From Eledone cirrhosa (Eukaryota), in contig OZ024759.1 of assembly GCA_964016885.1 (NCBI GenBank), forward strand, positions 27,094,001 to 27,158,000: a DNA stretch of 64,000 nucleotides, in the 5' to 3' direction. Both the position numbers and the translations under genes were made by a program. Position 1 is the stretch's first letter, and each line of letters starts with the position of its first letter. A model generated the notes under the pieces. The model searched no databases, was not told where the DNA came from, and was given only the letters and a program-made list of their open reading frames with translations. This document shows, in pieces, positions 1 to 39,556 of the stretch.

Positions 1-232
1 CAGTCTCTCGGGGTATATTTGCAATGGTGGCAACACAGCCTTTACTTTATTACAACAGTTATTTTCATTTCTAAATTTCAAAGCTTCACAGTGATCACAC
101 GAAACATTCATATCACTAATATGAAATTCTTCTAGATTTCCATTAATATTAATTGTTGGCCAATTTCTCTTATGACGCTCATTATCCATTCTTCTCTGTC
201 TGAATGTTTTCCATTCTAAGTCTATTTGCATG
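1..232 (-). pseudogene. Helitron RepHel N-terminal Cys-rich fragment (runs off window start)
   Basis: Same sequence as 39139-39369, which translates to SCDHCEALKFRNENNCCNKVKAVLPPL. Confidence 0.85.
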
Positions 233-332
233 GAATAATTATATTCTGTTGTTTATTATGTAATTAAATAGCTCTGTACGATACATAGAGCATTCTTCTT
301 TTCTTTACCTTTTCTATAGAAATACAAGAACA

Positions 333-381
<49 letters not shown>

Positions 382-420
382 GTGTGTATATACATAAACA
401 AGACTGTTATTACTCCAACC

Positions 421-3400
421 AGATGAAACTCTGTCATGTAATGTTATCGACATATCTGCCCTTGGGGCTAATAATTGTCATGTAATGTTATGGACATCTC
501 TGCCCCTGTGGCTAATAATTCTGTCATGTAATGTTATGGACATCTCTGCCCCTGTGGCTAATAATTCTGTCATGTAATGTTATGGACATCTCTGCCCCTG
601 TGGTTAATAATTCTGAGAGAGATAAAACAAGTGAGGGATTAGAGTGTTGAAACAAGAGAGAGAGAGGAAGAGAGAGAGAGAGCGAGATGAAATGAGACAG
701 GGAGAGCGAGATGAAACGCGAGAGTGAGAGAAGCGATATGAAACGAGAGAGTGAGAGCGAGATGAAACGAGAGAGAGAGAGAGCGAGATGAAACGAGACA
801 GAGAGAGCGAGATGTAATGAGAGAGAGAGAGAGAGCGGGATGGAACGAGACAGAGAGGAAACGAGAGAGAGAGGAAACGAGAGTAGAGAGCGAGATGAAA
901 CAGGAGAGAGAGAGCGAGATGAAACGAGAGGGAGAGAGAGATGAAACGAGGGAGATAGAGATGAAACGAGAGAGAGGAAGAGAGAGATGGAACGAGAGAG
1001 AGGAAGACAGAGATGAAACGAGAGAGAGAGAGAGATGAAACGAGAGAGAGAGAGCGCGAGATGAAACGAGAGAGAGAGAGCGCGAGATGAAACGACAGAG
1101 AGAGAGAGAGATGAAAGGAGGGAGATAGAGATGAAACGAGAGAGAGGAAGAGAGAGATGGAACGAGCGAGAGGAAGAGAGAGATGGAACGAGAGAGAGGA
1201 AGACAGAGATGAAACGAGAGAGAGCGAGATGAAACGAGAGAGAGAGAGAGCGAGATGAAACGAGAGAGAGGAAGAGAGAGAGCGCCAGATGAAACTCTGT
1301 CATGTAATGTTATGGACATATCTGCCCTTGGGGCTAATAATTGTCATGTAATGTTATGGACATCTCTGCCCCTGTGGCTAATAATTCTGTCATGTAATGT
1401 TATGGACATCTCGGCCCCTGTGGCTAATAATTCTGACATGTAATGTTATGGACATCTCTGCCCCTGTGGCTAATAATTCTGACATGTAATGTTATGGACA
1501 TCTCTGCCCCTGTGGCTAATAATTCTGTCATGTAATGTTATGGACATCTCTGCCCCTGTGGCTAATAATTCTGCCATGTAATGTTATGGACATCTCTGCC
1601 CCTGTGGCTAATAATTCTGCCATGTAATGTTATGGACATCTCTGCCCCTGTGGCTAATAATTCTGACATGTAATGTTATGGACATCTCTGCCCTGTGGCT
1701 AATAATTCTGACATGTAATGTTATGGACATCTCTGCCCCTGTGGCTAATAATTCTGAGAGAGATGAAACAAGTGAGGGATTAGAGAGAGATAAAACAAGT
1801 GAGGGATTAGAGTGTTGAAACAAGAGAGAGAGAGGAAGAGAGAGAGAGAGCGAGATGAAATGAGACAGGGAGAGCGAGATGAAACACGAGAGTGAGAGAA
1901 GCGAGATGAAACGAGAGAGTGAGAGCGAGATGAAACGAGAGAGAGAGAGAGCGAGATGAAACGAGACAGAGAGAGCGAGATGTAATGAGAGAGAGAGAGA
2001 GCGGGATGGAACGAGACAGAGAGGAAACGAGAGAGAGGAAACGAGAGTAGAGAGCGAGATGAAACGAGAGGGAGAGAGAGATGAAACGAGAGAGAGCAAG
2101 AGAGAGATGGAACGAGAGAGAGGAAGACAGAGATGAAACGAGAGAGAGAGAGAGCGAGATGAAACTCTGTCATGTAATGTTATGGACATATCTGCCCTTG
2201 GGGCTAATAATTGTCATGTAATGTTATGGACATCTCTGCCCCTGTGGCTAATAATTCTGTCATGTAATGTTATGGACATCTCTGCCCCTGTGACTAATAA
2301 TTTTGTCATGTAATGTTATGGACATCTCTGCCCCTGTGGCTAATAATTCTGACATGTAATGTTATGGACATCTCTGCCCTGTGGCTAATAATTCTGACAT
2401 GTAATGTTATGGACATCTCTGCCCCTGTGGCTAATAATTCTAAGAGAGATGAAACAAGTGAGGGATTAGAGAGAGATAAAAAAGTGAGGGATTAGAGTGT
2501 TGAAACAAGAGAGAGAGAGGAAGAGAGAGAGAGAGAGCGAGATGAAATGAGACAGGGAGAGCGAGATGAAACGAGACAGAGAGGAAACGAGAGAGAGGAG
2601 ACGAGAGTAGAGAGCGAGATGAAACAGAAGAGAGAGAGCGAGATGAAACGAGAGGGAGAGAGAGATGAAACGAGTGAGCGAGAGAGAGATGAAACGAGGG
2701 AGATAGAGATGAAACGAGAGAGAGGAAGAGAGAGATGGAACGAGAGAGAGGAAGAGAGAGAGGAAGACAGAGATGAAACGAGAGAGAGAGAGAGCGAGAT
2801 GAAATGAGAGAGAGAGAGCGCGAGATGAAACGAGAGAGAGAGAGAGCGCGAGATGAAACGACAGAGAGAGAGACAGATGAAAGGAGGGAGATAAAGATGA
2901 AACGAGAGAGAGGAAGAGAGAGATGGAACGAGAGAGAGGAAGAGAGAGAGGAAGACAGAGATGAAACGAGAGAGAGAGAGAGCGAGAGGAAACGAGAGAG
3001 AGAGAGCGCAAGATGAAACGAGAGAGAGAGAGCGCGAGATGAAACTCTGTCATGTAATGTTATTGACATATCTGCCTCTGTGGCTAATAATTGTCATGTA
3101 ATGTTATGGTCATCTCTGCCCCTGTGGCTAATAATTCTGTCATGTAATGTTATGGACATCTCTGCCCCTGTGGTTAATAATTCTGACATGTAATGTTATG
3201 GTCATCTCTGCGCCTGTGGCTAATAATTCTGAGAGAGATGAAACAAGTGAGGGATTAGAGTGTTGAAACAAGAGAGAGAGAGCGAGATGAAATGAGAGAG
3301 TGTGAGCGAGATGAAACGAGACAGGGAGAGCGAGATGAAACGAGAGAGTGAGAGCGAGATGAAACGAGAGAGTGAGAGCGAGATGAAACGAGAGAGAGAG

Positions 3401-6400
3401 AGCGAGATGAAATGAGAGAGAGAGAGCGAGATGAAATGAGAGAGAGAGAGCGAGATGAAACGAGACAGAGAGAGAACGAGATGAAACGAGAGAGTGAGAG
3501 CGAGATGAAACGAGAGAGAGAGAGCGAGATGAAACGGGAGGGAGAGAGAGATGAAACGAGAGAGAGTGGAAACGAGAGTAGAGAGCGAGATGAAACAGGA
3601 GAGAGAGAGAGCGAGATGAAACAGGAGAGAGAGAGCGAGATGAAACGAGAGGGAGAGAGAGATGAAACGAGAGAGCGAGAGAGAGATGAAACGAGGGAGA
3701 TAGAGATGAAACGAGAGAGAGGAAGAGAGAGATGGAACGAGAGAGAGGAAGATAGAGATGGAACGAGAGAGAGGAAGACAGGGATGAAACGAGAGAGAGA
3801 GAGAGCGAGATGAAACAGGAGAGAGAGAGCGAGATGAAACGAGAGGGAGAGAGAGATGAAACGAGAGAGCGAGAGAGAGATGAAACAAGGGAGATAGAGA
3901 TGAAACGAGAGAGAGGAAGAGAGAGATGGAACGAGAGAGAGGAAGAGAGAGATGGAACGAGAGAGAGGAAGACAGAGATGAAACGAGAGAGCGAGATGAA
4001 ACGAGAGAGAGGAAGAGAGAGAGCGCCAGATGAAACTCTGTCATGTAATGTTATGGACATATCTGCCCTTGGGGCTAATAATTGTCATGTAATGTTATGG
4101 ACATCTCTGCCCCTGTGGCTAATAATTCTGAGAGAGATGAAACAAGTGAGGGATTAGAGAGAGATAAAACAAGTGAGGGATTAGAGTGTTAAAACAAGAG
4201 AGAGAGAGAGCGAGATGAAACGCGATAGTGAGAGAAGCGAGATGAAACGAGAGAGTGAGAGCGAGATGAAACGAGAGAGAGAGAGAGCGAGATGAAACGA
4301 GACAGAGAGAGCGAGATGTAATGAGAGAGAGAGCGAGCGGGATGGAACGAGACAGAGAGGAAACGAGAGTAGAGAGCGAGATGAAACGAGAGGGAGAGAG
4401 AGATGAAACGAGAGAGCGAGAGAGAGATGAAACCAGGGAGATAGAGATGAAATAAGAGAGAGGAAGAGAGAGATGGAACGAGAGAGAGGAAGACAGAGAT
4501 GAAACGAGAGAGAGAGAGAGCGAGATGAAACGAGACAGAGAGAGCGCGAGATGAAACGAGAGAGAGAGAGCACGAGATGAAACGACAGAGAGAGAGACAG
4601 ATGAAAGGAGGGAGATAGAGATAAAACGAGAGAGAGGATGAGAGAGATGGAACGAGAGAGAGGAAGAGAGAGATGGAACGAGAGAGAGGAAGACAGAGAT
4701 GAAACGAGAGAGAGAGAGAGCAAGATGAAACGAGAGAGAGAGAGCGCGAGATGAAACTCTATCATGTAATGTTATTGATATATCTGCCCCTGTGGCTAAT
4801 AATTGTCATGTAATGTTATGGTCATCTCTGCCCCTGTGGCTAATAATTCTGTCATGTAATGTTATGGACGTCTCCGCCCCTGTGGCTAATAACTCTGACA
4901 TGTAATGTTATGGACATCTCTGCCCTGTGGCTAATAATTCTGACATGTAATGTTATGGACATCTCTGCCCCTGTGGCTAATAATTCTGAGAGAGATGAAA
5001 CAAGTGAGGGATTAGAGAGAGATAAAACAAGTGAGGGATTAGAGTGTTGAAACAGGAGAGAGAGAGCGAGATGAAACGCGATAGTGAGAGAGGCGAGATG
5101 AAACGAGAGAGTGAGAGCGAGATGAAACGGGACAGAGAGAGCGAGATGTAATGAGAGAGAGAGAGAGCGGGATGGAACGAGACAGAGAGGAAACGAGAGT
5201 AGAGAGCGAGATGAAACGAGAGGGAGAGAGAGATGAAACGAGAGAGCGAGAGAGAGATGAAACGAGGGAGATAGAGATGAAACGAGAGAGAGGAAGAGAG
5301 AGATGGAACGAGAGAGAGGAAGACAGAGATGAAACGAGAGAGAGAGAGAGCGAGATGAAACGAGAGAGAGAGAGCGCAAGATGAAACGAGAGAGAGAGAG
5401 CGCGAGATGAAACGACAGAGAGAGAGACAGATGAAAGGAGGGAGATAGAGATGAAACGAGAGAGAGGAAGAGAGAGATGGAACGAGAGAGAGGAAGACAG
5501 AGATGAAACGAGAGAGAGAGCGAGATGAAACGAGAGAGAGGAAGAGAGAGAGCGCGAGATGAAACTCTCTCATGTAATGTTATCGACATATCTGCCCTTG
5601 GGGCTAATAATTGTCATGTAATGTTATGGACATCTCTGCCCCTATGGCTAATAATTCTGTCATGTAATGTTATGGACATCTCTGCCCCTGTGGCTAATAA
5701 TTCTGTCATGTAATGTTATGGACATCTCTGCCCCTGTGGCTAATAATTCTGACATGTAATGTTATGGACATCTCTGCCCCTGTGGCTAATAATTCTGCCA
5801 TGTAATGTTATGGACATCTCTGCCCTGTGGCTAATAATTCTGACATGTAATGTTATGGACATCTCTGCCCCTGTGGCGAATAATTCTGAGAGAGATGAAC
5901 CAAGTGAGGGATTAGAGAGAGATAAAACAAGTGAGGGATTAGAGTGTTGAAACAAGAGAGAGAGAGGAAGAGAGAGAGAGAGCGAGATGAAACAAGAGAG
6001 TGAGAGAAGCGAGATGAAACGAGAGAGTGAGAGCGAGATCAAACGAGAAAGAGAGACAGCGAGATGAAACGAGACAGAGAGGAAACGAGAGAGAGAGGAA
6101 ATGAGAGAGAGGAAACGAGAGTAGAGAGCGAGATGAAACAGGAGAGAGAGAGCGAGAAGAAACGAGCGGGAGAGAGAGATGAAACGAGAGAGCGAGAGAG
6201 AGATGAAACGAGGGAGATAGAGATGAAACGAGAGAGAGGAAGAGAGAGATGGAACGAGAGAGAGGAAGACAGAGATGAAACGAGAGAGAGAGAGAGCGAG
6301 ATAAAACGAGACAGAGAGAGCGCGAGATGAAACGAGAGAGAGAGAGCGCGAGATGAAACGACAGAGAGAGAGACAGATGAAAGGAGGGAGATAGAGATGA

Positions 6401-7942
6401 AACGAGAGAGAGGATGAGAGAGATGGAACGAGAGAGAGGAAGAGAGAGATGGAACGAGAGAGAGGAAGACAGAGATGAAACGAGAGAGAGAGCAGGATGA
6501 AACGAGAGAGAGAGAGCGCAAGATGAAACGAGAGAGAGAGAGCGCGAGATGAAACTCTGTCATGTAATGTTATTGACATATCTGTCCCTGTGGCTAATAA
6601 TTGTCATGTAATGTTATGGTCATCTCTGCCCCTGTGGCTAATAATTCTGTCATGTAATGTTATGGACATCTCTGCCCTTGTGGCTAATAATTCTGAGATA
6701 TATTAAACAAGTGAGGGATTAGAGTGTTGAAACAAGAGAGAGAGAGCGAGAAGAAATGAGAGAGTGAGAGCGGGATGAAATGAGAGAGAGAGAGCGAGAT
6801 GAAACGGGAGGGAGAGAGAGATGAAACGAGAGAGAGAGGAAACGAGAGTAGAGAGCGAGATGAAACAAGAGAGAGAGAGAGCGAGATGAAACAGGAGAGA
6901 GAGAGCGAGATGAAACGAGAGGGAGAGAGAGATGAAACGAGAGAGCGAGAGAGAGATGAAACAAGGGAGATAGAGATGAAACGAGAGAGAGGAAGAGAGA
7001 GATGGAACGAGAGAGAGGAAGAGAGAGATGGCACGAGAGAGAGGAAGACAGAGATGAAACGAGAGAGAGAGAGCGAGATGAAACGAGAGAGAGAGAGCGC
7101 GACATGAAACGAGAGAGAGAGAGCGCTAGATGAAACGACAGAGAGCGAGACAGATGAAAGAAGGGAGATAGAGATGAAACGAGAGAGAGGAAGAGAGAGA
7201 TGGAACGAGAGAGAGGAAGACAGAGATGAAACGAGAGAGAGAGAGAGCAAGATGAAACGAGAGAGAGAGAGAGCGCAAGATGAAACGAGAGAGAGGAAGA
7301 GAGAGATGGAACGAGAGAGAGGAAGAGAGAGATGGCACGAGAGAGAGGAAGACAGAGATGAAACGAGAGAGAGAGAGCGAGATGAAACGAGAGAGAGAGA
7401 GCGCAAGATGAAACGAGAGAGAGAGAGCGCGAGATGAAACGACAGAGAGAGAGACAGATGAAAGAACGGAGATAGAGATGAAACGAGAGAGAGGAAGAAA
7501 AAGATGGAACGAGAGAGAGGAAGAGAGAGATGGAACGAGAGAGAGGAAGACAGAGATGAAACGAGAGAGAGAGAGAGCGAGATGAAACGAGAGAGAGGAA
7601 GACAGAGATGAATCGAGAGAGAGGGAGAGCGAGATGAAACGAGAGAGAGAGCGCGCAAGATGAAACTCTGTCATGTAATGTTATTGACATATCTGCCCCT
7701 GTGGCTAATAATTGTCATGTAATGTTATGGTCATCTCTGCCCCTGTGGCTAATAATTCTGTCATGTAATGTTATGGACATCTCTGCCCCTGTGGCTAATA
7801 ATTCTGACATGTAATGTTATGGACATCTCTGCCCTTGTGGCTAATAAATCTGACATGTAATGTTATGGAAATCTCTGCCCCTGTGGCTAATAATTCTGTC
7901 ATGTAATGTTATGGAAATCTCTGCCCCTATGGCTAATAAATC
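421..7942 (+). repeat. Composite satellite, forward arm: 8 modules of [46-bp monomer block + fixed linker + GA-rich block] plus a final monomer block
   Basis: Monomer is ctgtcatgtaatgttatggacatctctgcccctgtggctaataatt (46 bp). Blocks start at ~431, 1295, 2166, 3046, 4037, 4758, 5566, 6556 and 7667. Linker is aaacaagtgagggattagagtgttgaaacaag. GA blocks are built on GAGATGAAAC(GA)n. Confidence 0.97.
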
Positions 7943-10900
7943 AGAATTATTAGCCACAGGGGCAGAGATGTCCATAACATTACATGTCAGAATTATTAGC
8001 CACAGGGGCAGAGATGTCCATAACATTACATGACAGATTTATTAGCCACAGGGGCAGAGATGTCGATAACATTACATGTCAGATTTATTAGCCACAGGGG
8101 CAGAGATGTCCATAACATTACATGTCAAAATTATTAGCCACAGGGGCAGAGATGTCCATAACATTACATGACAGATTTATTAGCCACAGGGGCAGAGATG
8201 TCCATAACATTACATGACAGAATTATTAGCCACAGGGGCAGAGATGTCCATAACATTACATGACAGAATTATTAGCCACAGGGGCAGAGATTTCCATAAC
8301 ATTACATGACAATTATTAGCCCCAAGGGCAGATATGTCCATAACATTACATGACAGACTTTCATCTCGCGCTCTCTCTCTCTCGTTTCATCTCACGCTCT
8401 CTCTCTTCCTCTCTCTCGTTTCATCTCGCGTTCTCTCTCTTCCTCTCTCTCGTTTCATCTCGCTCTCTCTCTCGTTTCATCTCTGTCTTCCTCTCTCTCG
8501 TTCCATCTCTCTCTTCCTCTCTCTCGTTCCATCTCTCTCTTCCTCTCTCTCGTTTCATCTCTCTCTCTCGTTTCATCTCTATCTCCCTCGTTTCATCTGT
8601 CTCTCTCTCTGTCGTTTCATCTCCCTCTATCTCTCTCTCGCTCTCTCGTTTCATCTCTCTCTCCCTCTCGTTTCATCTCGCTCTCTCTCTCCTGTTTCAT
8701 CTCGCTCTCTCTCTCCTGTTTCATCTCGCTCTCTACTCTCGTTTCCTCTCTCTCGTATCCTCTCTCTCGTTTCCTCTCTCTCTCGTTTCCTCTCTCTCTC
8801 GTTTCCTCTAGCTCTCACTCTCTCGTTTCATCTCGCTCTCTCTCTCTCATTTCATCTCGCTCTCTCTCTCTCGTTTCATCTCGCTCTAACCTGTCTCGTT
8901 TCATTTCGCTCTCTCTCTCTCTCGTTTCATTTCGCTCTCTCTGTCTCATTTCATCTCGCTCTCTCTCTCTCATTTCAACTCGCTCTCTCTCTCTCATTTC
9001 ATCTCGCTCTCTCTCTCTCGTTTCATATCGCTCTCACTCTCTCATTTCATCTCGCTCTCTCTCTCTCGTTTGATCTCGCTCTCACTCTCTCTTCCTCTCT
9101 CTCTCTTGTTTCAACACTCTAATCCCTCACTTGTTTCATCTCTCTCTTATCCCTCACTTGTTTCATCTCTCTCAGAATTATTAGCCACAGGGGCAGAGAT
9201 ATCCATAACATTACATGTCAGAATTATTAGCCACAGGGGCAGAGATGTCCATAACATTACATGACAGATTTATTAGCCACAGGGGCGGAGATGTCCATAA
9301 CATTACATGACGAATTTATTAGCCACAGGGGCAGAGATGTCCATAACATTACATGACAGAATTATTAGCCACAGGGGCAGAGATGTCCATAACATTACAT
9401 GACAGAATTATTTGCCACAGGGGCAGAGATGTACATAACATTACATGACAATTATTAGCCCCAAGGGCAGATATGTCCATAACATTACATGACAATTATT
9501 AGCCCCAAGGGCAGATATGTCCATAACATTACATGACAGACTTTCATCTCGCGCTCTCTCTCTTCCTCTCTCTCGTTTCATCTCGCTCTCTCTCTCTCGT
9601 TTCATCTCGCTCTCTCTCTCTCTCGTTTCATCTCGCGCTCTCTCTCTTCCTCTCTCTCGTTTCATCTCGCTCTCTCTCTCGTTTCATATCTGTCTTCCTC
9701 TCTCTCGTTCCATCTCTCTATTCCTCTCTCTCTCGTTTCATCTAGCTATCACTCTCCCGTTTCATCTCCCTCTATCTCTCTCTCGCTCTCTCGTTTCATC
9801 TCTCCCTCCCTCTCATTTCATCTCGCTCTCTCTCTCCGGTTTCATCTCGCTCTCTCTCTCTCCTGTTTCATCTTGCTCTCTACTCTCGTTTCCTCTCTCT
9901 CGTTTCCTCTCTCTCGTTTCCTCTATCTCTCGTTTCCTCTCTCTCTCGTTTCATCTAGCTCTCACTCTCTCGTTTCATCTCGCTCTCTCTGACTCGTTCC
10001 ATCTCGCTCTCACTCTCTCGTTTCATCTCGCTCTCTCTCTCTCATTTCATCTCGCTCTCTCTCTCTCATTTCATCTCGATCTCTCTATCTCGTTTCATCC
10101 CGCTCTCTCTGTCTCGTTTCATCTCGCTCTCTCTCTCTCATTTCATCTCGCTCTCTCTCTCTCATTTCATCTCGCTCTCTCTCTCTCTCTCGTTTCATCT
10201 CACTCTCAATCTCTCATTTCATCTCGCTCTCTCTCTCTCATTTCATCTCGCGCTCTCTCTCTTCCTCTCTCTCGTTTCATCTCGCGCTCTCTCTCTTCCT
10301 CTCTCTCGTTTCATCTCGCTCTCTCTCTCTCGTTTCATCTTGCGCTCTCTCTCTTCCTCTCTCTCGTTTCATCTCGCGCTCTCTCTCTTCCTCTCTCTCG
10401 TTTCATCTTGCTCTCTCCCTCTCTCTTTTCATCTCGCGTTCTCTCTCTTCCTCTCTCTCGTTTCATCTCTGTCTTCCTCTCTCTCGTTCCATCTCTCTCT
10501 TCCTCTCTCTCGTTCCATCTCTCTCTTCCTCTCTCTCGTTTCATCTCTCTCTCTCGTTTCATCTCTATCTCCCTCGTTTCATCTGTCTCTCTCTCTGTCG
10601 TTTCATCTCCCTCTATCTCTCTCTCGCTCTCTCGTTTCATCTCTCTCTCCCTCTTGTTTCATCTCGCTCTCTCTCTCCTGTTTCATCTCGCTCTCTCTCT
10701 CCTGTTTCATCTCGCTCTCTACTCTCGTTTCCTCTCTCTCGTATCCTCTCTCTCGTTTCCTCTCTCTCTCGTTTCCTCTCTCTCTCGTTTCCTCTAGCTC
10801 TCACTCTCTCGTTTCATCTCGCTCTCTCTCTCTCATTTCATCTCGCTCTCTCTCTCTCGTTTCATCTCGCTCTAATCTGTCTCGTTTCATTTCGCTCTCT

Positions 10901-13900
10901 CTCTCTCTCGTTTCATTTCGCTCTCTCTGTCTCGTTTCATCTCGCTCTCTCTCTCTCATTTCAACTCGCTCTCACTCTCTCATTTCATCTCGCTCTCTCT
11001 CTCTCGTTTGATCTCGCTCTCACTCTCTCTTCCTCTCTCTCTCTTGTTTCAACACTCTAATCCCTCACTTGTTTCATCTCTCTCTTATCCCTCACTTGTT
11101 TCATCTCTCTCAGAATTATTAGCCACAGGGGCAGAGATATCCATAACATTACATGTCAGAATTATTAGCCACAGGGGCAGAGATGTCCATAACATTACAT
11201 GACAGATTTATTAGCCACAGGGGCGGAGATGTCCATAACATTACATGACGAATTTATTAGCCACAGGGGCAGAGATGTCCATAACATTACATGACAGAAT
11301 TATTAGCCACAGGGGCAGAGATGTCCATAACATTACATGACAGAATTATTTGCCACAGGGGCAGAGATGTACATAACATTACATGACAATTATTAGCCCC
11401 AAGGGCAGATATGTCCATAACATTACATGACAATTATTAGCCCCAAGGGCAGATATGTCCATAACATTACATGACAGACTTTCATCTCGCGCTCTCTCTC
11501 TTCCTCTCTCTCGTTTCATCTCGCTCTCTCTCTCTCGTTTCATCTCGCTCTCTCTCTCTCTCGTTTCATCTCGCGCTCTCTCTCTTCCTCTCTCTCGTTT
11601 CATCTCGCTCTCTCTCTCTCTCGTTTCATATCTCTCTTCCTCTCTCTCGTTCCATCTCTCTATTCCTCTCTCTCTCGTTTCATCTAGCTATCACTCTCTC
11701 GTTTCATCTCCCTCTATCTCTCTCTCGCTCTCACGTTTCATCTCTCCCTCCCTCTCATTTCATCTCGCTCTCTCTCTCCGGTTTCATCTCGCTCTCTCTC
11801 TCTCCTGTTTCATCTTGCTCTCTACTCTCGTTTCCTCTCTCTCGTTTCCTCTCTCTCGTTTCCTCTCTCTCTCATTTCCTCTCTCTCTCGTTTCATCTAG
11901 CTCTCACTCTCTCGTTTCATCTCGCTCTCTCTGACTCGTTCCATCTCGCTCTCACTCTCTCGTTTCATCTCGCTCTCTCTCTCTCTCATTTCATCTCGCT
12001 CTCTCTCTCTCATTTCATCTCGATCTCTCTGTCTCGTTTCATCCCGCTCTCTCTGTCTCGTTTCATCTCGCTCTCTCTCTCTCATTTCATCTCGCTCTCT
12101 CTCTCTCATTTCATCTCGCTCTCTCTCGCTCTCTCGTTTCATCTCACTCTCAATCTCTCATTTCATCTCGCTCTCTCTCTCTCATTTCATCTCGCGCTCT
12201 CTCTCTTCCTCTCTCTCGTTTCATCTCGCGCTCTCTCTCTTCCTCTCTCTCGTTTCATCTCGCTCTCTCTCTCTCGTTTCATCTTGCGCTCTCTCTCTTC
12301 CTCTCTCTCGTTTCATCTCGCTCTCTCTCTCTCATTTCATCTCGATCTCTCTGTCTCGTTTCATCCCGCTCTCTCTGTCTCGTTTCATCTCGCTCTCTCT
12401 CTCTCATTTCATCTCGCTCTCTCTCTCTCATTTCATCTCGCGCTCTCTCTCTTCCTCTCTCTCGTTTCATCTCGCGCTCTCTCTCTTCCTCTCTCTCGTT
12501 TCATCTCGCTCTCTCTCTCTCTCTCGTTTCATCTTGCGCTCTCTCTCTTCCTCTCTCTCGTTTCATCTCGATCTCTCTCTGTCTCGTTTCATCTCTGTCT
12601 TCCTCTCTCTCGTTTCATCTCTCTCTCTCGTTTCATCTCTGTCTTCCTCTCTCTCGTTCCATCTCCCTCTTCCTCTCTCTCGTTCCATCTCTCTCTTCCT
12701 CTCTCTCGTTTCATCTCTCTCTCTCGTTTCATCTCTATCTCCCGCGTTTCATCTGTCTCTCTCTCTGTCGTTTCATCTCCCTCTATCTCTCTCTCGCTCT
12801 CTCGTTTCATCTCTCTCTCCCTCTCGTTTCATCTCGCTCTCTCTCTCCTGTTTCATCTCGCTCTCTCTCTCCTGTTTCATCTCGCTCTCTACTCTCGTTT
12901 CCTCTCTCTCGTTTCGTCTCTCTCGTTTCCTCTCTCTCTCGTTTCATCTAGCTCTCCCACTCTCGTTTCATCTCGCTCTCTCTGACTCGTTCCATCTCGC
13001 TCTCACTCTCTCGTTTCATCTCGCTCTCTCTCTCTCATTTCATCTCGCTCTCTCTCTCTCATTTCATCTCGCTCTCTCTCTCTCGTTTCATCTCGCTCTC
13101 TCTGTCTCGTTTCATCTCGCTCTCGCTCTCTCTGTCTCGTTTCATCCCGCTCTCTCTCTCTCATTTCATCTCGCTCTCTCTCTCTCATTTCATCTCGCTC
13201 TCTCTCTCTCTCTCGTTTCATCTCGCTCTCACTCTCTCATTTCATCTCGCTCTCTCTCGTTTGATTTCGCTCTCACTCTCTCTTCCTCTCTCTCTCTTGT
13301 TTCAACACTCTAATCCCTCACTTGTTTCATCTCTCTCAGAATTATTAGCCACAGGGGCAGAGATGTCCATAACATTACATGTCAGAATTATTAGCCACAG
13401 GGGCAGAGATGTCCATAACATTACATGACAGATTTATTAGCCACAGGGGCAGAGATGTCCATAACATTACATGACGAATTTATTAGCCACAGGGTCAGAG
13501 ATGTCCATAACATTACATGTCAGAATTATTAGCTACAGGGGCAGAGATGTCCATAACATTACATGTCAGAATTATTAGCCACAGGGGCAGAGATGTCCAT
13601 AACATTACATGACAGATTTATTAGCCACAGGGGCAGAGATGTCCGTAACATTAAATGACAGATTTATTAGCCACAGGGGCAGAGATTCCATAACATTACA
13701 TGTCAGAATTATTAGCCACAGGGGCAGAGATTTCCATAACATTACATGACAGAATTATTAGCCACAGGGGCAGAGATGTCCATAACATTACATGACAGAA
13801 TTATTAGCCACAGGGGCAGAGATGTCCATAACATTACATGACAATTATTAGCCCCAGGGGCAGATATGTCCATGACAGAGTTTCATCTCTCGCTCTCTCT

Positions 13901-15105
13901 CTTCCTCTCTCTCGTTTCATCTCGCTCTCTCTCTCGTTTCATCTCGCTCTCTCTCTCTCTCGTTTCACCTCTGTCTTCTTCTCTCTCGTTTCATCTCTCT
14001 CTTCCTCTCTCTCGTTCTATCTCTCTCTTCCTCTCTCTCGTTTCATCTCTCTCTCTCGTTTCATCTCTATATCCCTCGTTTCATCTGTCTCTCTCTCTGT
14101 CGTTTCATTTCCCTCTATCTCTCTATCGCTCTCTCGTTTCATCTCTCTCTCCCTCTCGTTTCATCTCGCTCTCTCTCTCCTGTTTCATCTCGCTCTCTCT
14201 CTCCTGTTTCATCTCGCTCTCTACTCACGTTTCCTCTCTCTCGTTTCCTCTCTTTCTCGTTTCATCTCTCTCTCGTTTCATCTCTCTATGTCTCATTTCA
14301 TCTCGCTCTCTCTCTCTCTCATTTCATCTCGTTCTCTCTCTCTCTCATTTCATCTCGCTCTCACTCTCTCGTTTCATCTCGCTCTCTCACTCTCGTTTCA
14401 TCTCGCACTCTCTCTCTCGTTTCATCTCTCTCTCTCTCTCTCTCTCATTTCATCTCGCTCTCTGTCTCGTGTCATCTCGCTCTCTCTGTCTCTCGTTTCA
14501 TCTCGCTCTCACTCTCTCGTTTCATCTCACTCTAACTCTCTCATTTCATCTCGCTCTCCCTGTCTCGTTTCATCTCGCTCCCACTCTCTCATTTCATCTC
14601 ACTCTCTTTCTCTCATTTCATCTCGCTCTCTCGCTCTTGTTTCAACACTCTAATCCCTCACTTGTTTCATCTCTCTCTAATCCCTCACTTGTTTCATCTC
14701 TCTCTTGTTTCAATTCTTTCTCTCTCTCTCTCTCACTCTCTCTCTCTCTCTCTCTCTCTTTCTATCCCCTCTCTCTTTCTCTCCCCTCTCTCTGTTGTTT
14801 CATCCCTCACCCTCTTGTTTCATCCCCTTCTCTCCCTCTCTCTCTCTTCCCCTCTATCTCTATTCCTCTCTCTCATCCCCTCTCTCTCTCTTCCTCTCTC
14901 TCTCTTCCTCTCTCCCCTCACCCTCTTGTTTCAACTCTCTCCTCGTTTCAACTCTCTCCTCGTTTCAACTCTCTCCTCGTTTCAACTCTCTCCTCGTTTC
15001 AACTCTCTCTCTCTCCTCTCGTTTCAACTCTCTCTCTCTCCTCGTGTTTCAACCATCTCCTCTCTTGTTTCAACTCTCTCACCTCTCGTTTCAACTCTCT
15101 CTCTC
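7943..15105 (-). repeat. Composite satellite, inverted arm: 4 longer modules plus a terminal CT tract with GTTTCAAC words
   Basis: Reverse-complement monomer aattattagccacaggggcagagatgtccataacattacatgacag in blocks at ~7943, 9174, 11112 and 13338, separated by CT-rich blocks. Confidence 0.97.
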
Positions 15106-15302
15106 TGTGTCTCCAATGTGTATACCGATATATATACCGAAGAATGTACATAAACACACATGCATACACGCATGTGTATATATATATACATACATGTGTC
15201 TCTCTCTCTCCCTATATATATGTACATATGTGTAAATATGTACATACATATTAGTGTATATATATTGCTATCTATATGCATATTTGTATTAATTATACTG
15301 TA

Positions 15303-15475
15303 TGGTGAATTGGCAGTATCGGTAGAGGGTCTGACGCCATGCTTTCCAGCATAGTTACGTCCCTTTACGATCCGAGGTCAACTTTGCCTTTCATCCTTAC
15401 GGGGTCGATAAAATAAAGTACCAGTAATGTACTGGTTAATTACTGACCTTGTGCCTAAAATAGAAACAATTATTA
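15303..15475 (+). mobile_element. tRNA-derived SINE, octopus type (also ~28397-28570 and 54472-54644)
   Basis: A-box-like head tggtgaattggcagtatcggtagag and core gtcaactttgcctttcatccttacggggtcgataaaataaagtaccagt, recognised from memory as octopus SINE sequence. Confidence 0.8.
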
Positions 15476-16032
15476 GTTCAAAGAGAAACCACCATCATAG
15501 AGAAACCACCGTCCTACCTGAAATATTATGTTATCATATTAAATATTTCTTATACTGTCATGTTTTTTCTTTAAAACGATTGCATTTCAATAAAGTGAAG
15601 AAAACTATTATATACTGTTGTTATATCATTATACTTTAGTTTTAACTTATTATTTCTATGTGTATAAATATAATGTATGTAAGTGTGTTTGAAAATATAT
15701 AATAATAATATGCATGTTTGAAGCAGGGTTCAACTGAAATATCTACACCGGTAACTTAATTAGTGTTACACCTTAGGCATAAACTATTTGGCATTCTTTG
15801 AAGGAGGTACTAGGTTTTTCACTGTCTTAAATGGAGTATACACGCGCACACAATGCATATATATAAATTGTTTTTCTCTGTACAAAGAGATTGACATCAT
15901 TTCTTAAATCATTATTTAGGGTTTTACAACAAAACATATTGTATGTGTAATTATACAAATTGAATTTAAGTATTTATTTTAAAATTTTACATACACTTTA
16001 GTAGTATATATATATATATATATATTCATTTG

Positions 16033-16850
16033 TGATGCCATGCATTGTATTGTACACTTCGACATATGAATTACGTTCATGCAACACTTCTCTTATCATA
16101 GCCATTTTTTGTGGTGAGCAGTCATTATTTGTTGGTACTAGGGCAGTGGATTGGCAGTATCGGTAGAGCGCCAGACACCATGCTTTACAGCATAGGGTTA
16201 TGGCCATTTACGTTCTGGGTTCAAATCCCTCCAAGGTTGACTTGGTTTTCATCCTTATGAGGTCGATAGAATAAAGTACCAGTAATTGCTGGCCTTGTGC
16301 CAGAAACAATTATTTGGTTGTACTTCCAATCTGTGCTACACACCTTCGTTCCCATCAATAATATATAACTGGCCATATTGTGGTGTATTTTCTGCAGGTT
16401 ACAGAGATGGGGGTGTAGTGATATGTTTGACCCTGAATATGAAAGCTATACGGGCCTCTGCCGGGTGGTAACACCAAATGAAGTGAAATAAATGTAGTTT
16501 TAATTGCAGATGTTTCTGTGAAATCAACTGCTTCCTGGCCTCTTTCAAAGAGATTTCTCAGTCTCTCAGGGTATATTTGCAATGGTGGCAACACAACCTT
16601 TCCTTTATTACAACAGTTACAATTTTCATTTCTAAATTTCAAAGCTCCACAGTGATCACACGAAACATTCATATCACTAATATGAAATTCTTCTACATTT
16701 CCATTAATATTAATTGTTGGCCAATTTCTCTTACAACGCTCATTATCCATTCTTCTCTGTCTGAATGTTTTCCATTCTGTTGTTTATTATGTAATTAAAT
16801 AGCTCTGTACAATACATAGAGCATTCTTCTTTTCTTTACCTTTTCTATGG
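16033..16850 (-). pseudogene. Helitron RepHel N-terminal part, interrupted by a SINE (copy 55202-56019)
   Basis: ORF 16355-16750 reads CDHCGALKFRNE..CCNKGKVVLPPL..P.RLRNLF and PGRGPYSFHIQGQTYH, typical Helitron N-terminal motifs. Frameshifted. Confidence 0.88.
16141..16308 (+). mobile_element. tRNA-derived SINE inserted in the Helitron ORF (also 29234-29401, 38721-38888, 55310-55477)
   Basis: Head ggcagtggattggcagtatcggtagagc, B-box gggttcaaatcc, core ttttcatccttatgaggtcgatagaataaagtaccagt. Flanked by an imperfect 16-bp direct repeat (attatttgttggtact / attatttggttgtact). Confidence 0.85.
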
Positions 16851-17399
16851 AAATACAAGAACAAACATGTAAATATATATATATATGTATATACATAAAC
16901 AAGACTGTTATTGCTCCAACCAGTCTATTTACCTTTGATAACTATCCTAAATATAAATACACCTATACCATACATACATATATCATATATGTTTTTGATG
17001 CCGTGGTATAGCAGAGATAAGCAAGAAGAGAAAAGAAAATGAAAAGGAGAAAAAAAAAGAAGTAAGAAGTCGGGGGAGGGACAGACACTTCACCCCAGTC
17101 TAAGTGGTCCCTCAGCCGCAACCTGTGGAAGAAACTTAAAAGCGTTACCTCGGAGCAAGGCCAGAGACACCTGCTACAATAGTCGCCCCTCCTCATGAGG
17201 CTCCTGTCATCTTTCCTCCCGACTTTATGGAGGAAATCAGCAGTACAGGGACCAAGTATGGCAGAGGTCTCAATGGAGTGGAAGAGGTGAGTCAGGCCTT
17301 GGTACTATCTTACTATCCTCTGCATTGCGGGGTGTGGAGCCTAGGTTTGTGGCTGTAGCTATATTTGAACTTTTATATGAAATTTCAGTTTTATATTTT

Positions 17400-17484
17400 T
17401 CACATCATAAAACTTAATCTTAGTCTTTTGCAGCTCATCTTGTTTCATCTCGCAGCACACGATTTGGGAACCACTGCTCTAGAG
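17400..17484. mobile_element. hAT-Charlie/Buster-type transposon terminus (TIR also at 20441, 30495, 56633, 59424); inner boundary unknown
   Basis: ttgggaaccactg (17464-17476) is the reverse complement of CAGTGGTTCCCAA and is followed by ctctagag, matching the Charlie NTCTAGAN 8-bp target consensus. Confidence 0.75.
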
Positions 17485-17808
17485 ATAGAAAAAGTATATT
17501 TTATGCAGGGCTTCCCTGAGACATAAAAACTATTTCAAGAGATCGACATGGGTAGAAAGGTTGAGAAATGCTGCACAATGTTCTTTGGTTTTTGTTCACC
17601 TTTAAATAATCATGTATAAAATATCGGGTGTGCAAGATTTCATGAAAAGGTATAACATTTTTTATGCTGGTCTTGCAGGGACTAGCTCCAATTGAGAGTT
17701 GTACCAATTCCCACTAAACTCGAAACTCCTGGACAATATATACATATCTTTATAAGTTCCTGTGTATTGTGTCGCTGTATAATGAAACATAAATATATAC
17801 CATGCATG

Positions 17809-18056
17809 TCAGTCAGATTTGAACTCACTATATTTGGCGTTTTATAGACATAATTTGTTTGTTAAAACAATTGATTAAATAATAACTAAATAAAATTAAT
17901 TCTACAATCCTGGATAGGGAATGAACTTATAACTTCATAATAGAAGCCATCTATTCGAGCAGTATTGCCATCTAAGCCACCAGGTTACTTACAGAACTTC
18001 ATTCAAATATAAAATATAAAATATATGCCAGACATAGTGAGTTCGAATCTGACTGA
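17809..18056. mobile_element. ~250-bp MITE-like element with 30-bp TIRs (also 20786, 30840, 56978, 59769)
   Basis: tcagtcagatttgaactcactatatttggc (17809-17838) and gccagacatagtgagttcgaatctgactga (18027-18056) match 27/30 as an inverted repeat, around an AT-rich interior. Confidence 0.65.
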
Positions 18057-18171
18057 TTAGTTGGTCATTGTCCCAGCCAACAGTTTAAATCGCCAACCAG
18101 TAGGTGACATCGACTAGGTTGGGAAAACTTGGTTAAGTAGCTCCAGTTATTGCTACGTTAGACATATTCAA

Positions 18172-18275
18172 GACTTATCGACACCGAATGGAAGAAAGGT
18201 AAAGTTGAACTCAGAGTAAAGAACAGGAAAAATACTGCAAAGAATTCTATCTGATGTTCTAACAATTCTACCAAA
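18172..18275 (-). mobile_element. Degenerate tRNA-SINE fragment (also ~21149, 31203, 57341, 60132)
   Basis: Reverse complement reads tggtagaattgttagaac...ctgagttcaactttacctttcttccattcggtgtcgataag, homologous to the plus-strand SINEs. Confidence 0.65.
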
Positions 18276-18362
18276 TTACCTTATGTATATATATTTATAT
18301 CTAGAGATAAGAAGAAAACTGAAAGAAAGAAAAGAAAAAAAATGAGACCTTATATGTAACCC

Positions 18363-19428
18363 ATGTTACAACTCAATATATATATATTTGGGTTGTAACA
18401 TATTCCCGCCGGTGAAATAAAAATTTTAATAGAAAAACGGCGGGAATATATGTTACAACCCAATCTATATATATTTGAGTTGTAACATATATTCCCGCCG
18501 TTGAAATAAAAATTTTAATAGAAAAACGGCGGGAATATATGTTACAATCCAATCTAGATATATTTGGGTTGTAACATATATTCCCGCCGTTGAAATAAAA
18601 ATTTTAATAGAAAACCGGCGGGAATATATGTTACAACCCAATCTATATATATTTGGGATGTAACATATATTCCCGCCGTTGAAATAAAAATTTTAATAGA
18701 AAAACGGCGGGAATATATGTTGCAACCCAATCTACATATATTTGGGTTGTAACATATATTCCCGCCGTTGAAATAAAAATTTTAATAGAAATACGGCGGG
18801 AATATATGTTACAACCCAATCTATATATGTTTGGGTTGTAACATATATTCCCGCCGTTTTTCTATTAAAATTTTTATTTCAACGGCGGAAATATATGTTA
18901 CAACCCAAATATATGTAGATTGGGTTGCAACATATATTCCCGCCGTTTTTCTATTAAAATTTTTATTTCAACGGCGGGAATATATGTTACAATCCAAATA
19001 TATATAGATTGGGTTGTAACATATATTCCCGCCGTTTTTCTATTAAAATTTTTATTTCAACGGCGGGAATATATGTTGCAACCCAAATATTTATAGATAG
19101 GGTTGTAACATATATTCCCGCCGTTTTTCTATTAAAATTTTTATTTCGACGGCGGGAATATGTTACAACCCAAATATATATAGATTGGGTTGTAACATAT
19201 ATTCCCGCCGTTTTTCTATTAAAATTTTTATTTCAACGGCGGGAATATATGTTACAACTCAAATATATATAGATTGGGTTGTAACATATATTCCCGCCGT
19301 TTTTCTATTAAAATATTTATTTCAACGGCGGGAATATATGTTACAACCCAAAAATATGTAGATTGGGTTGTAACATATATTCTCGCCGTTTTTCTATTAA
19401 AATTTTTATTTCACCGGCGGGAATATAT
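18363..19428. repeat. Fold-back array of 89-bp palindromic units (5 forward + 7 reverse)
   Basis: Unit is gttgtaacatatattcccgccgtt-gaaataaaaattttaatagaaa-aacggcgggaatatatgttacaac-ccaatctatatatatttgg; period 89 (18480 to 18569). Loop orientation flips at ~18825. Confidence 0.95.
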
Positions 19429-19485
19429 ACCCTGAGAGACTGAGAAATCTCTTTCAAAGAGATTTCTCAGTCTCTCAGGGTATAT
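19425..19485. repeat. Perfect 30+1+30-bp palindrome at a duplication junction (copy 58416-58476)
   Basis: atataccctgagagactgagaaatctcttt-c-aaagagatttctcagtctctcagggtatat. Confidence 0.95.
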
Positions 19486-22124: not shown

Positions 22125-22813
22125 ATATTCAAATTATCCCCTGTGGGGCGTGCACCCCACGTTGAGAATCCCTCATAAATAAATATATGTGAGTGTGTTG
22201 CTATGACTGCTATTTCTAGCAGGTTTACTGCAGTCCTGTAGACGCACAACAAAAACCGGAAGTGGCAGCCATTAAAAAACTTTGGCTTAAAATCAGGCAA
22301 AAGTTTTTTAACAATTTGCCAAGAAAGATAACTCTTGTCTTACTTAATCGCAAAAATCGAGGCAAAAAATTTTGCGGGTGTGCAGTTTGTTTGGTGTATT
22401 TGACTGCTATTTCTAGCATATATGGACACTTTAGAAATAGCAGCGAAACACGGGAAACATAAGAAAGAAGGACACACACGTATATATATATACATATATA
22501 TATGCACAGATATATACATTTAAATATATATATTTATATATACATACACGCGCGCACACACACCTATACGTAGATATGGGTGTGTGTATAGCTGGTATAT
22601 ATATATATATGTATGGGTGAGTGTATAGCTGGTATATATATATATATATATATAGGTGTGTGTCCTTCTTTCTGCTGTTTTCCGTTTTTCGCTGCTATTT
22701 CTAAAGTGTCCATACATGCTAGAAATAGCAGTCATAGCAACACACTCACATATATTTATTTATGAAGGATTCTCAACGTGGGGTGCACGCCCCACAGGGG
22801 ATAATTTGAATAT
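22125..22813. repeat. Nested inverted-repeat element with ~97-bp arms (also 33854-34586, 61105-61844)
   Basis: 22125-22221 is a near-perfect reverse complement of 22717-22813. Inner inverted pair ~22400-22460 / 22655-22735. Centre is (TA)/(CA) microsatellite. Confidence 0.85.
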
Positions 22814-23409
22814 CCCCCTCTTTATATCAATTAGCACTAACTCTCTCCCTCTCTATATCTACTACACGGCACTCTCTTCCAATACCCCTCTCTATATGAA
22901 GTAACACCAAACTCTCCCCCTCTCTATATATTAAGCACTAAGTCAGGAATTTTTTTCTTCTTTCGTGCAGAGAGAGTAAAGTTGATTAAATCTACTGCAG
23001 TGAATTACTGGTATTTTATTTAATAAAAATTAAAATTTACTATTTGTCTTCGTTTAATTTTCGTTTTTCTTTACATAGTTTCGTTTCGTTAAATGTCTCC
23101 AGAATTTGTTTTTACTTTTACCGGATATTGAAGGTGTAAACTTGGTGTTGTCTAGAAACGTGTTAGAAATATTTTTCTTTTAATTGTGAAGAATTTAACC
23201 GCAAAGTAAGTTTTTTTTACTGTTTATTTGTGGCTGGGACAACGTATGGTATGTGTTAATGTAAATGGTGAAGGTTTAAAGATTCTTTTTACAACTGAAA
23301 ATCAGTTTGTTGTTGCTGCTAATTACTTAACGCATGGAATAGATTAAAAAAATACAGGATTGTTTCTCGGAAGAGAGAAAGAAGAAACAACAAATCACAG
23401 AAGCGGGTA

Positions 23410-23590
23410 GCACACACATTTGGGACCACATACAACACAAAAACAGGTAATCCACACATCTGGGACCACATACAACACACCAGCAGGTAATACATACATC
23501 TAGGACCACATAAGCAGGTAATACACACATCTAGGACCACATACAACACACAAGCAGGTAATACACACATCTAGGACGACATACAACCAA
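23410..23590. repeat. ~40-bp minisatellite, 4-5 degenerate units (also ~35180, ~62441)
   Basis: Repeats of gcaggtaatacacacatctaggaccacatacaacacacaa. Confidence 0.8.
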
Positions 23591-23659
23591 AGGCAGGCGA
23601 AAGGGGTGGACAAACGAGCTGCTACTAGATCAAAAGATAACAGTATCGCGAGGAGCACT

Positions 23660-24033: not shown

Positions 24034-24400
24034 AGTTGACCTATACTAAAGGACTTCACTGATAGGGTTATATGTGTTATAATTTCCCAGTTGACCTATA
24101 CTAAAGGACTTCACTGATAGGGTTATATGTGTTATAGTTTCCCAGTTGACCTATACTAAAGGGCTTCACTGATAGAGTTATATGTGTTATAGTTTCCCAG
24201 AGGGCTTCACTGATAGGGTTATATGTGTTATAGTTTCCCAGTTGACCTATACTAAAGGACTTCACTGATAGGGTTATATGTGTTATAGTTTCCCAGTTGA
24301 CCTATACTAAAGGACTTCACTGATAGGGTTATATGTGTTATCGTTTCCCAGTTGACCTATACTAAAGGGCTTCACTGATAGAGTTATATGTGTTATAGTT
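24034..24400. repeat. 55-bp minisatellite, 6 full + 1 truncated units (same layout at 63065-63432)
   Basis: Unit agttgacctatactaaaggacttcactgatagggttatatgtgttatagtttccc; period 55 (24035, 24090, 24145). Confidence 0.95.
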
Positions 24401-24973
24401 TGAAACAAACTACCTGCATCAGTTATTATACTTTTATAACACCGCTATATTACCTACATGAAAGAGGTAAATATTTATTTCTCTTGTCTTCTTAAATGTA
24501 TAGAACATTTTTCTTATATATATTCTTAACATAGCTAGGACCGTTTATTATTTACTAGTCTCTACTCCTAGGACTTTGCTGGTCTCATGTCCCCTCCATC
24601 AACACACACTCGGTAGAAAGCTGGTCGTCGGATGTAAAGTGGCCCTGATTACAGGTCTAGTATTGAAGCCTTTCGGCTTGAGCCTTGCTGATGCCGACAC
24701 AGTTCCTGTGGTAGTTTTGGTAGCACAGGTGACATTTTATTGTGTTTAGGTACCGGCTAGTGCGGACACAGAGAGCACAACCAGGTGGTGAGCTGGCAAC
24801 GACCAAGTGTAGAGGGCCAGCTTTGAAATTCGAGCGACGGAGTGAACTAGTAAAAGAGGCAGGGTAAGCAGCATTGGTTCTAACGGTGGGACTAGAACGG
24901 AGGTTGGGTGGTGCTGGGGGTGGGCTAACAGCTAACAGTTGTAGGAGTGGTGGGGGTTTGCTAGGATTAATTT

Positions 24974-26570
24974 TTACATCTGTCTGTGAACTCTTGAAAA
25001 AGCAACATACAATTGTCCAGGGTTAAATACTTGCTCAGGGAGGAACAGACCCACTTTATCATGTATTTGACCATGGTTCTTGTTGATTGTCATGGCATAT
25101 GACAGTCTTAATGGAAACTGGGGTCTTTCCAAAGTAAAAGGGATGTTGGCACCACTGGGGGATAACTTCAGTCTTGGGATCAAAACACACCTGCCCATGA
25201 AAGGACCATAGATATGAGAAGCTTTGATAAAATGTTTATGCAGTTCTACTACTTCTAATCTTGTGCCATTACATAATCTGTTCTGGATTGAAATATTCCA
25301 TAGAAGCATTATTATTGATCCTGCTTATAATTGGAGTTTGTGAGGCGGCATCCCAGAAGGTGTAAGCAAGTTCATTTAGCTTGAACCAGGCAGCAAGGGT
25401 CCCTGCATTTCTACCACAACCTGAGCATTGCCTCTTTGAAAGTAAACTCTGTTTGTTCTCCAGGTGTGTGGCTAGGCTGTATACTGTATGTGATGTACCA
25501 TGAAGCTTAAATTCCGAGAGACACGACACTGCTTCTGGCTGAGACACATACCTGCAACAAAGATAGGTTCTTATTTCATCATGGTTGTGTTGGTTCTGAG
25601 CCTCATTAGGTAATGCATTATTCGTTACTTCTATAGATGTACAATCATGCCCCATGTAACATATTTAAAGAGGTACTTGACACTTTTTACAGAAGCGCAA
25701 ACTTCAACATTAATATGTGCACAATATTTCTTAAGCAAAAAGGCATTAAATGGCATAACATTCCTGTTATCTACTGAATGTCATCCAATTTACACTGCAG
25801 TTCCTGTCTTGCACCTCCTGTACTCTGGGTATCCATTTAGGTTCAATAATGTTTCCCTTCTGTAGGTTTTTGGATAGTTCTTTTTGAAAAATCCATTTTG
25901 TATAAATGGGGGAAAAGGGTTTCCAGAACCACATGGCCTGTGGATCATAAACTTTTAAACCTGCTCATGTAGTACTGGATCATCTTCCAATGCAGGTATT
26001 TCTGCTGACACGATTCTGTCAATGTCTTCTCTGTTTCTTATCTTGTCTTCATTTTTTAAGGCTCAGTGTTATCATCTGTTTAGATAATTCATTAAACCAT
26101 TATACTCATCCACTCACAATTGGGCTTGATTGTTCCTCAAATATTGAAGCCTGCATCCCTCTACTTTCATATAGGCATCCACTAAATACTGCTAAAATAA
26201 TTTACCTGCCCTATATATCGCACTAAATCCTCCTCTATATGCTATACAGTATATGTAATACTCCTGCATTGTCAGTCTATTGCAAACACAGGTCCTACAT
26301 TCCTCTCCATGGCACTATGCCACCAAAATTCACCATTATCGGTCGGTCATGAGGTCCAAGTGGCATGAATTATGTGGTATTTTCTGAGGAGGATGGTCTT
26401 TAGGAAAGATGATAATATCTCTTTGTACAGGTGGTGTGCCCTCAATCCCCCACAAAACAACAGCTATCATTACTAGTTGGTAAATTAGAGCAGCTCATAT
26501 CTGATCCTCTTCTAAATCTTAATTCACAGTTCTGTACACGACAATTTTCTCTTCTTGCACTTTGCTGTTT
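24974..26570 (-). pseudogene. Helitron Rep + PIF1 helicase remnant, internally deleted
   Basis: Peptides GKLF*QYLVDAYMKVEG, DIDRIVSAEIP, HINVEVCASVKSVKYLFKY..GHD, DEIRTY..RYVS..EA, and helicase C-terminus LCNGTRL, QFPLRLSYAMTINK..GQ, GQLYVAFSRV. Stops and frameshifts present. Confidence 0.93.
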
Positions 26571-29126: not shown

Positions 29127-29985
29127 GATGCCATGCATTGTATTGTACACTTCGACATATGGATTATATTCATGCAACACCTCTCATATCATAGCCATTT
29201 TTTGTGGTGAGCAGCCATTATTTGTTGGGACTAGGGCAGTGGATTGGCAGTATCGGTAGAGCGTCAGACACCATGCTTTGCAGCATAGGGTTATGGCCCT
29301 TTACGTTCTGGGTTCAAATCCCTCTAAGGTTGACTTTGTTTTCATCCTTATGAGGTCGATAGAATAAAGTACCAGTAATTGCTGGCCTTGTGCCAGACAA
29401 AATTATTTGGTTGTACTTCCAATCTGTGCTACACACCTTCGTTCCCATCAATAATATATAACTGGCCATATTGTGGTGTATTTTCTGCAGGTTACAGAGA
29501 TGGGTGTGTATTGATATGTTTGACCCTGAATATGAAATCTATACGGGCCTCTGCCGGGTGGTAACACCAAATGAAGTGAAATAAATGTAGTTTTAATTGC
29601 AGATGTTTCTGTGAAATCAACTGCTTCCTGGCCTCTTTCAAAGAGATTTCTCAGTCTCTCAGGGTATATTTGCAATGGTGGCAACACTACCTTTCCTTTA
29701 TTACAACAGTTACAATTTTCATTTCTAAATTTCAAAGCTCCACAGTGATCACACGAAACATTCATATCACTAATATGAAATTCTTCTACATTTCCATTAA
29801 TATTAATTGTTGGCCAATTTCTCTTACGACGCTCATTATCCATTCTTCTCTGTCTGAATGTTTTCCATTCTAAATCTATTTGCATGGAATAATTATATTC
29901 TGTTGTTTATTATGTAATTAAATAGCTCTGTACAATACATAGAGCATTCTTCTTTTCTTTACCTTTTCTATGGAAATACAAGAAC
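29127..29985 (-). pseudogene. Helitron RepHel N-terminal part (continuation of 24974-26570)
   Basis: ORF 29448-29885 with CDHCGALKF..CC.KGKV and GPYRFHIQGQTY. Confidence 0.88.
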
Positions 29986-32563: not shown

Positions 32564-32658
<95 letters not shown>

Positions 32659-39460: not shown

Positions 39461-39470
39461 TACAAGAACA

Positions 39471-39517
<47 letters not shown>

Positions 39518-39556
39518 GTGTGTATATACATAAACAAGACTGTTATTACTCCAACC

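Follow-up and report, generated by a model that had tools for sequence, protein, structure and literature searches.

A spacerless strand switch in a compound satellite of a cephalopod genome, probably the product of one recent inversion or template switch copied with its host macro-repeat

The satellite described here is a compound array folded back on itself, and we consider it probable (about 0.72) that a single recent inversion or template switch within a tandem array produced the fold, which was then copied passively, together with a 12-40-kb macro-repeat, to 66 sites of the genome. It was studied in a 64,000-nucleotide stretch of Eledone cirrhosa DNA (C20:27094001-27158000, hereafter the window), which belongs to a genome of 3.0 Gb. 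Tandem Repeats Finder and a monomer map resolve the array into blocks of 46-bp monomers that alternate with AG-rich degenerate repeats. Its two subarrays run in opposite orientations and hold unequal numbers of monomers, which is the arrangement known as a macro-dyad. A first-pass annotation had let forward and inverted modules meet at 7942/7943, and both the coordinates and the module counts given there hold in the monomer map (Table 1).

Table 1. Features of the folded satellite and its host unit, in window coordinates
Feature	Position	Strand	Remarks
Dead Helitron RepHel gene, 5' coding fragment	1-252	-	Left flank of the satellite
Left border	419-422	+	CCAG microhomology where flank and mid-array module meet; present at 35 sites in the genome
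Left arm, inverted-derived	421-7942	+	9 blocks of 46-bp monomers, 8 short AG-rich spacers
Near-perfect mirror	7713-8173		230 bp per side, 11-12 mismatches, ungapped
Head-to-head switch	7931-7955		GGCTAATAAATC-A-GAATTATTAGCC; 66 sites show the pattern, and the 50 listed are all identical
Right arm, oriented as in unfolded relatives	7943-15105	-	4 blocks, 3 long spacers, CT-rich tail
Insert remainder, non-satellite	15106-16032		AT-rich; includes a piece that we take to be SINE-like
Helitron Rep-region fragment	16033-16783	-	Stops and frameshifts
Helitron Rep/helicase remnant	24600-26572	-	Internal deletion
Unfolded single-module version of the satellite insert	26573-29128	-	TGA on both sides
Satellite-free unit copy	36078-39558	-	One TGA (empty site); Pif1 2B at 37021-37419; Helraiser E 3.6e-37
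Second folded satellite copy	39557-54300		Belongs to the following higher-order unit (39.1 kb); its switch is centred at 47053

Block by block, the left arm holds 4, 10, 6, 4, 2, 5, 7, 3 and 6 monomers, with each of the eight spacers measuring 420-985 bp. The blocks of the right arm hold 9, 8, 8 and 11 monomers and are separated by spacers of about 830, 1580 and 1870 bp, after which the tail follows. At the centre of the window's switch, the single unpaired A between GGCTAATAAATC and GAATTATTAGCC is accompanied by a mismatch three bases away and by 2 bp of microhomology (TC); foreign sequence is absent, and the description of the switch as spacerless stands but for that one base. As the annotation had stated, the arms are not mirror copies of each other: the ungapped mirror, whose longest perfect run is 40 bp, ends at 230 bp, and beyond it the arm-to-arm alignment becomes patchy, at 74-84%. 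The longest exact inverted match between the two arms measures 124 bp. The kilobases of dsRNA that the annotation would expect from read-through transcription have to be set against a true mirror of no more than about 230 bp on each side. This low identity between left and right arm likely reflects module turnover. For the central 460 bp, a single-strand DNA fold of -248 kcal/mol is predicted, against -39 kcal/mol for an unfolded block of equal length, both energies being predictions only.

The fold is not confined to the window. A survey of monomer and switch across the genome, which the first-pass annotation had put forward as a check, yielded 2,892 exact matches of a satellite 41-mer in the 3.0 Gb and 66 sites with the switch pattern (0-6 central bases allowed), against 0 for the reversed pattern that served as control. 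All 50 switch sites listed of the 66 carry the same 25 bases, with 16 of them on C18, 13 on C20 and 21 on C25. This identity on three non-homologous chromosomes indicates one origin, and a single founder junction that spread by duplication, with signs of flipping afterwards, is likely. A dedicated pattern for switch centres shortened by 3-33 bp found 0 matches genome-wide; since the centre could lose entire 46-bp monomers without leaving a trace, selection could still act on the switch. The stretches retrieved around switches hold 764 of the 41-mer matches for 23 switches, which would place about three quarters of the satellite in the switch clusters. Within the window, positions 1-19250 recur at 39139-58419 with 98% identity, and the two folded satellites are 99.8% identical over aligned bases. 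The recurrence of the switch at 47052/47053, which the annotation had held against a chimeric read, is therefore present but does not count as an independent case, as it is a copy within a 39.1-kb tandem repeat. On C20, a tandem array of ~12-kb units spans 458 kb and includes 12 switches, and the higher-order units measure about 25-49 kb from switch to switch.

A dead Helitron RepHel gene, located within a tandem macro-repeat family, carries an insert of 2.5 kb, and the satellite belongs to this insert. The filled insertion site shows TGA on both sides, the empty site a single TGA. Homology of the host unit to the Helitron Helraiser RepHel protein (PDB 7lcc) is found on the minus strand (E 3.6e-37 and 9e-6), but these remnants are broken and internally deleted, with many stops and frameshifts in place of an intact RepHel frame. 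The satellite-free relatives on C23 and C24 likewise contain no frame of RepHel length. Pif1_2B is the sole Pfam match above the cut-off among the first 12 host-unit frames, and 22 further frames gave no match; a host gene that could explain the amplification was not found by Pfam among the frames of the unit. A PHD-finger-like frame (24660-25022, minus strand, E 1.6e-4, below the Pfam cut-off) follows the Helitron helicase remnant. In head-to-tail concatemers of Helitrons, the 5' TC terminus and the 3' hairpin-CTRR terminus meet at the unit junction. A scan for the terminal hairpin gave two weak candidates per unit and no more, and neither the scan nor the family comparison identified Helitron termini in the unit, which diverges from the family copies at 24429. 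Among 257 candidates of a DNA search with the Helitron remnant, the 40 that were scored are 99-100% identical and lie on C18, C20, C25 and one small contig. An Rfam search of window 1-40000 returned 48 matches at E<=0.1, all below the gathering score and mostly assigning hairpins or AT repeats to miRNA models.

Several other repeats are found in the host unit or share its components. Tandem arrays of 40 bp and 55 bp occupy window positions 23396-23597 and 24034-24401, and the 55-bp array differs in length among host-unit copies. Inverted duplications centred on AT-rich repeats are present at 31937-33658 and 22401-22734; in the satellite-free relatives on C23, a version of 1.2 kb has arms that are ~89% identical. 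An 89-bp satellite with a two-hairpin monomer (18363-19428 and 57532-58419; 733 exact matches of a 26-mer taken from it) changes the direction of its loops inside the array: of the 34 arrays examined, 33 show one such reversal and the remaining one shows more. At 19430-19480, the Helitron 5' coding part is linked to this array by a perfect fold-back of its own sequence, 22 bp long, which turns at a natural quasi-palindrome of 6 bp. About three of the 46-bp monomers also stand alone at C7:42.1728 Mb, within an element that is presumably SINE-like, and are possibly a templated insertion.

Three versions of the unit coexist in one genome: one without the satellite, one with the satellite unfolded and one with it folded. 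Relatives with an unfolded satellite were found at C1:212.62 Mb, C18:25.0 Mb and C25:14.69 Mb, and the arrays on C1 and C25 are all-minus. The satellite-free relatives, at C23:8.6, 15.2 and 17.4 Mb and at C24:3.8 Mb, form separate 8-16-kb tandem arrays with periods of 8.2-8.6 kb and 15.5 kb. In 48 copies, folded and unfolded, the insert flank departs from the window copy by at most 1.9% substitutions, and the satellite-free relatives depart from it by 1.8-4.1%. Because these relatives differ by no more than about 4%, the fold looks young rather than old, contrary to the ancient inversion that had been suggested at first, although gene conversion could have reset the flank divergence on which this sequence-based dating depends. 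In a flank tree, the folded copies share a weakly supported group (65/93) with five unfolded copies, and the tree is too shallow to settle whether the folded copies are monophyletic.

The origin of the fold is best approached via its second junction. A partner tail-to-tail junction (GCC-ACA-TGTAATG), with a 3-bp microhomology (ACA), is present at 16 sites genome-wide. In the C25 and C18 copies examined, the flank is followed by a short block in minus orientation and then by the tail-to-tail junction; from there the plus arm leads to the head-to-head switch, beyond which come the minus arm and again flank. When both junctions are placed in the phase of the monomer, they match reciprocally at one of the breaks and share an overlap of 11-14 bp at the second. 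A single inversion whose ends were staggered would leave this pattern, as would two template switches; by our estimate, chance would produce such a match in ~1 of 8 cases. The 2-3 bp of microhomology at both junctions also suggest one inversion or template switch. Of the hairpin-replication scar considered earlier, the template switch is retained, but a second, reciprocal-looking junction, the tail-to-tail one, exists beside the switch. At the left border, the CCAG join with its 4-bp microhomology is likely a later deletion, which removed the partner junction in 35 copies, the window's included.

We propose that the sequence of events would have started with an insertion at a TGA and continued with the expansion of satellite modules, after which an inversion would have created one tail-to-tail and one head-to-head junction. 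The CCAG-microhomology deletion may then have eliminated the tail-to-tail junction from the window's lineage. Tandem and inter-chromosomal duplication of the folded unit would have followed, during which unequal exchange between corresponding arms of different copies could have added modules to an arm or removed them, and an occasional opposite-arm crossover might account for the flipped centre on C18. Under this scheme, recent descent of all copies from one switch would account for its conservation, and a function is not required.

The behaviour of the arms was followed in 31 of the 66 switches in context, by typing spacers with k-mers that are found exclusively in one of the window's two arms. 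Strictly left-type and right-type arms flank 12 of 12 switches on the main C20 stretch and 4 of 4 on C25, at lengths that vary from 2.8 to 10.8 kb (left) and from 3.9 to 12.3 kb (right). This retention of left and right module types in 16 of 16 copies bears out the proposal that each arm amplified separately. Spacers on C1 are mostly intermediate in type. On C18, 9 of 14 switches are flipped relative to the right-hand flank, which stands at both ends in 3 of the 14, and in 2 the Helitron flank does so; right-type modules are found on both sides of 11 of the 14, and one arm is chimeric, passing from left-type to right-type. On C20, one tail-to-tail junction is reversed with respect to three others examined, and a new head-to-head junction lies at C20:27237730. 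The flips against the flank on C18 suggest arm-to-arm recombination, and flips and chimeras together fit occasional opposite-arm crossover, as the accessible text of a study on yeast inverted-repeat amplicons describes (PMC6007334). Copy number and the C18 flips could nevertheless include assembly errors, given the 200-N gaps inside the C18 and C20 arrays.

Such gaps would favour the view that the switch itself arose during assembly or from a chimeric read, as would the fact that none of the contigs and reads examined runs across both full arms. We nevertheless hold this to be very improbable, since the 66 sites have site-specific variants and differing arm lengths, the switch centre is asymmetric, and two other libraries have short reads that contain the switch. 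These RAD-seq raw reads pass from the left arm through the switch in 17 cases in run X16 and in 10 cases in X17; after six bases of the right arm their match ends at an AATT that is presumably the library cut site, and unrelated letters follow, so that they support the junction in other libraries by a few bases only. Switch-crossing reads were absent among the matches listed for run X18, the Logan contigs of X1-X5 contain no piece spanning the switch, and plain tandem monomers, which supplied most of the read depth (495 and 95 reads with an opposite-strand joint), were left out as support. A further alternative, which we judge unlikely but worth considering, is that the fold promotes its own amplification: as a palindrome without a spacer it would provoke breaks or fork U-turns, set off rolling-circle or break-induced amplification, and in this way have made the folded lineage the largest and given rise to the flipped isomers. 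The folded lineage indeed fills megabase clusters on C18, C20 and C25, the satellite-free arrays seen being smaller; flipped and chimeric isomers occur on C18, the unit has further inverted junctions, and the available part of PMC6007334 connects inverted repeats in yeast with rolling-circle amplification, in which inversions and deletions are frequent. However, satellite-free relatives form tandem arrays too, though with a 1.2-kb palindrome of their own, small deletions at the switch centre are missing, flips amount to 0 of 16 in the C20 and C25 copies, and the fold is absent from most cluster units. It is similarly doubtful that the folded satellite is a self-amplifying flip-flop, whose centre would trigger amplification of the 12-40-kb unit and whose arms would recombine and thereby invert the centre and neighbouring units. 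If this were true, a macro-dyad domain of the Tribolium type would have been caught at birth in a mollusc, with all ancestral stages in the same genome.

The view that selection maintains the fold as a functional strand-switch domain, (peri)centromeric or organising heterochromatin, as proposed for Tribolium, appears quite improbable. Its appeal lies in the invariant switch and in a layout that matches the Tribolium macro-dyads, which in the accessible text of PMC12581902 consist of two inverted subarrays of ~10-16 kb, without a spacer and with the same switch on several chromosomes. Yet just three chromosome-scale contigs occur among the switch matches listed, and the 2,892 exact 41-mer matches in 3.0 Gb mark a minor satellite, not one that dominates the (peri)centromeres of most chromosomes; the invariance, moreover, is explained by recent common descent. 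A DNA transposon of the foldback type, the giant element of the earlier reading, whose long inverted termini would consist of tandem repeats, is the least credible option and largely refuted. The tandem repeats within long inverted arms do recall Tetris and Rehavkus, as far as the available text of PMC4079207 and PMC12581902 describes them. Unlike these, the satellite has no terminal inverted repeats, its outer ends being non-complementary, no 8-10-bp target duplication, no middle domain and no independent insertion sites, as 35 copies share one identical left flank.

One inversion or template switch with passive copying thus remains our preferred reading, and it has a parallel among known inverted rearrangements. 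DUP-TRP/INV-DUP at PLP1 arises by template switching with two junctions, 1-4 bp of microhomology and a normal-inverted-normal order, according to the accessible part of PMC4352052. The satellite shares with it the order and the two microhomology junctions, and inverted repeats yield inversion isomers there as well. It differs in that both junctions lie in 46-bp monomers and that a duplicate and a true inversion are indistinguishable for the inverted part. The case also allows the persistence and flipping of a 230-bp near-perfect palindrome to be measured in an animal germ line.

The nearest likeness is found in beetles, and the satellite does not reveal a new class of element, as its layout is already known from beetle satellites; a search of the octopus and cephalopod literature, thin on subscription journals, found no report of such a satellite. 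In the text available, TfSat01 and TfSat03 of T. freemani form two-subarray macro-dyads with a spacerless switch conserved on several chromosomes (PMC12581902), and the TmSat1/TmSat2 cassettes of T. madens form macro-dyads with spacerless conserved switches (PMC13081366). Unequal inverse subarrays of ~10-16 kb, the lack of foreign sequence at the switch, fixed borders and variable monomer numbers are shared between the beetle arrays, as described there, and ours. In Tribolium, the conservation of inversion points has been taken to indicate function, and the T. madens paper, in its accessible part, also states that this conservation may reflect spread and not function (PMC13081366). The present switch, which is just as invariant and spacerless on three chromosomes and goes back to a single, likely recent event, could therefore serve as a useful neutral counter-example. 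On the same accessible accounts, the Tribolium arrays contain thousands of switches and rank as major satellites of putative (peri)centromeres, whereas here 66 switches belong to a minor two-tier satellite hosted by a dead-Helitron macro-repeat; and since unfolded and satellite-free relatives are present and a partner junction is retained, the origin of the fold is traceable in a way that sets it apart from its beetle counterparts.
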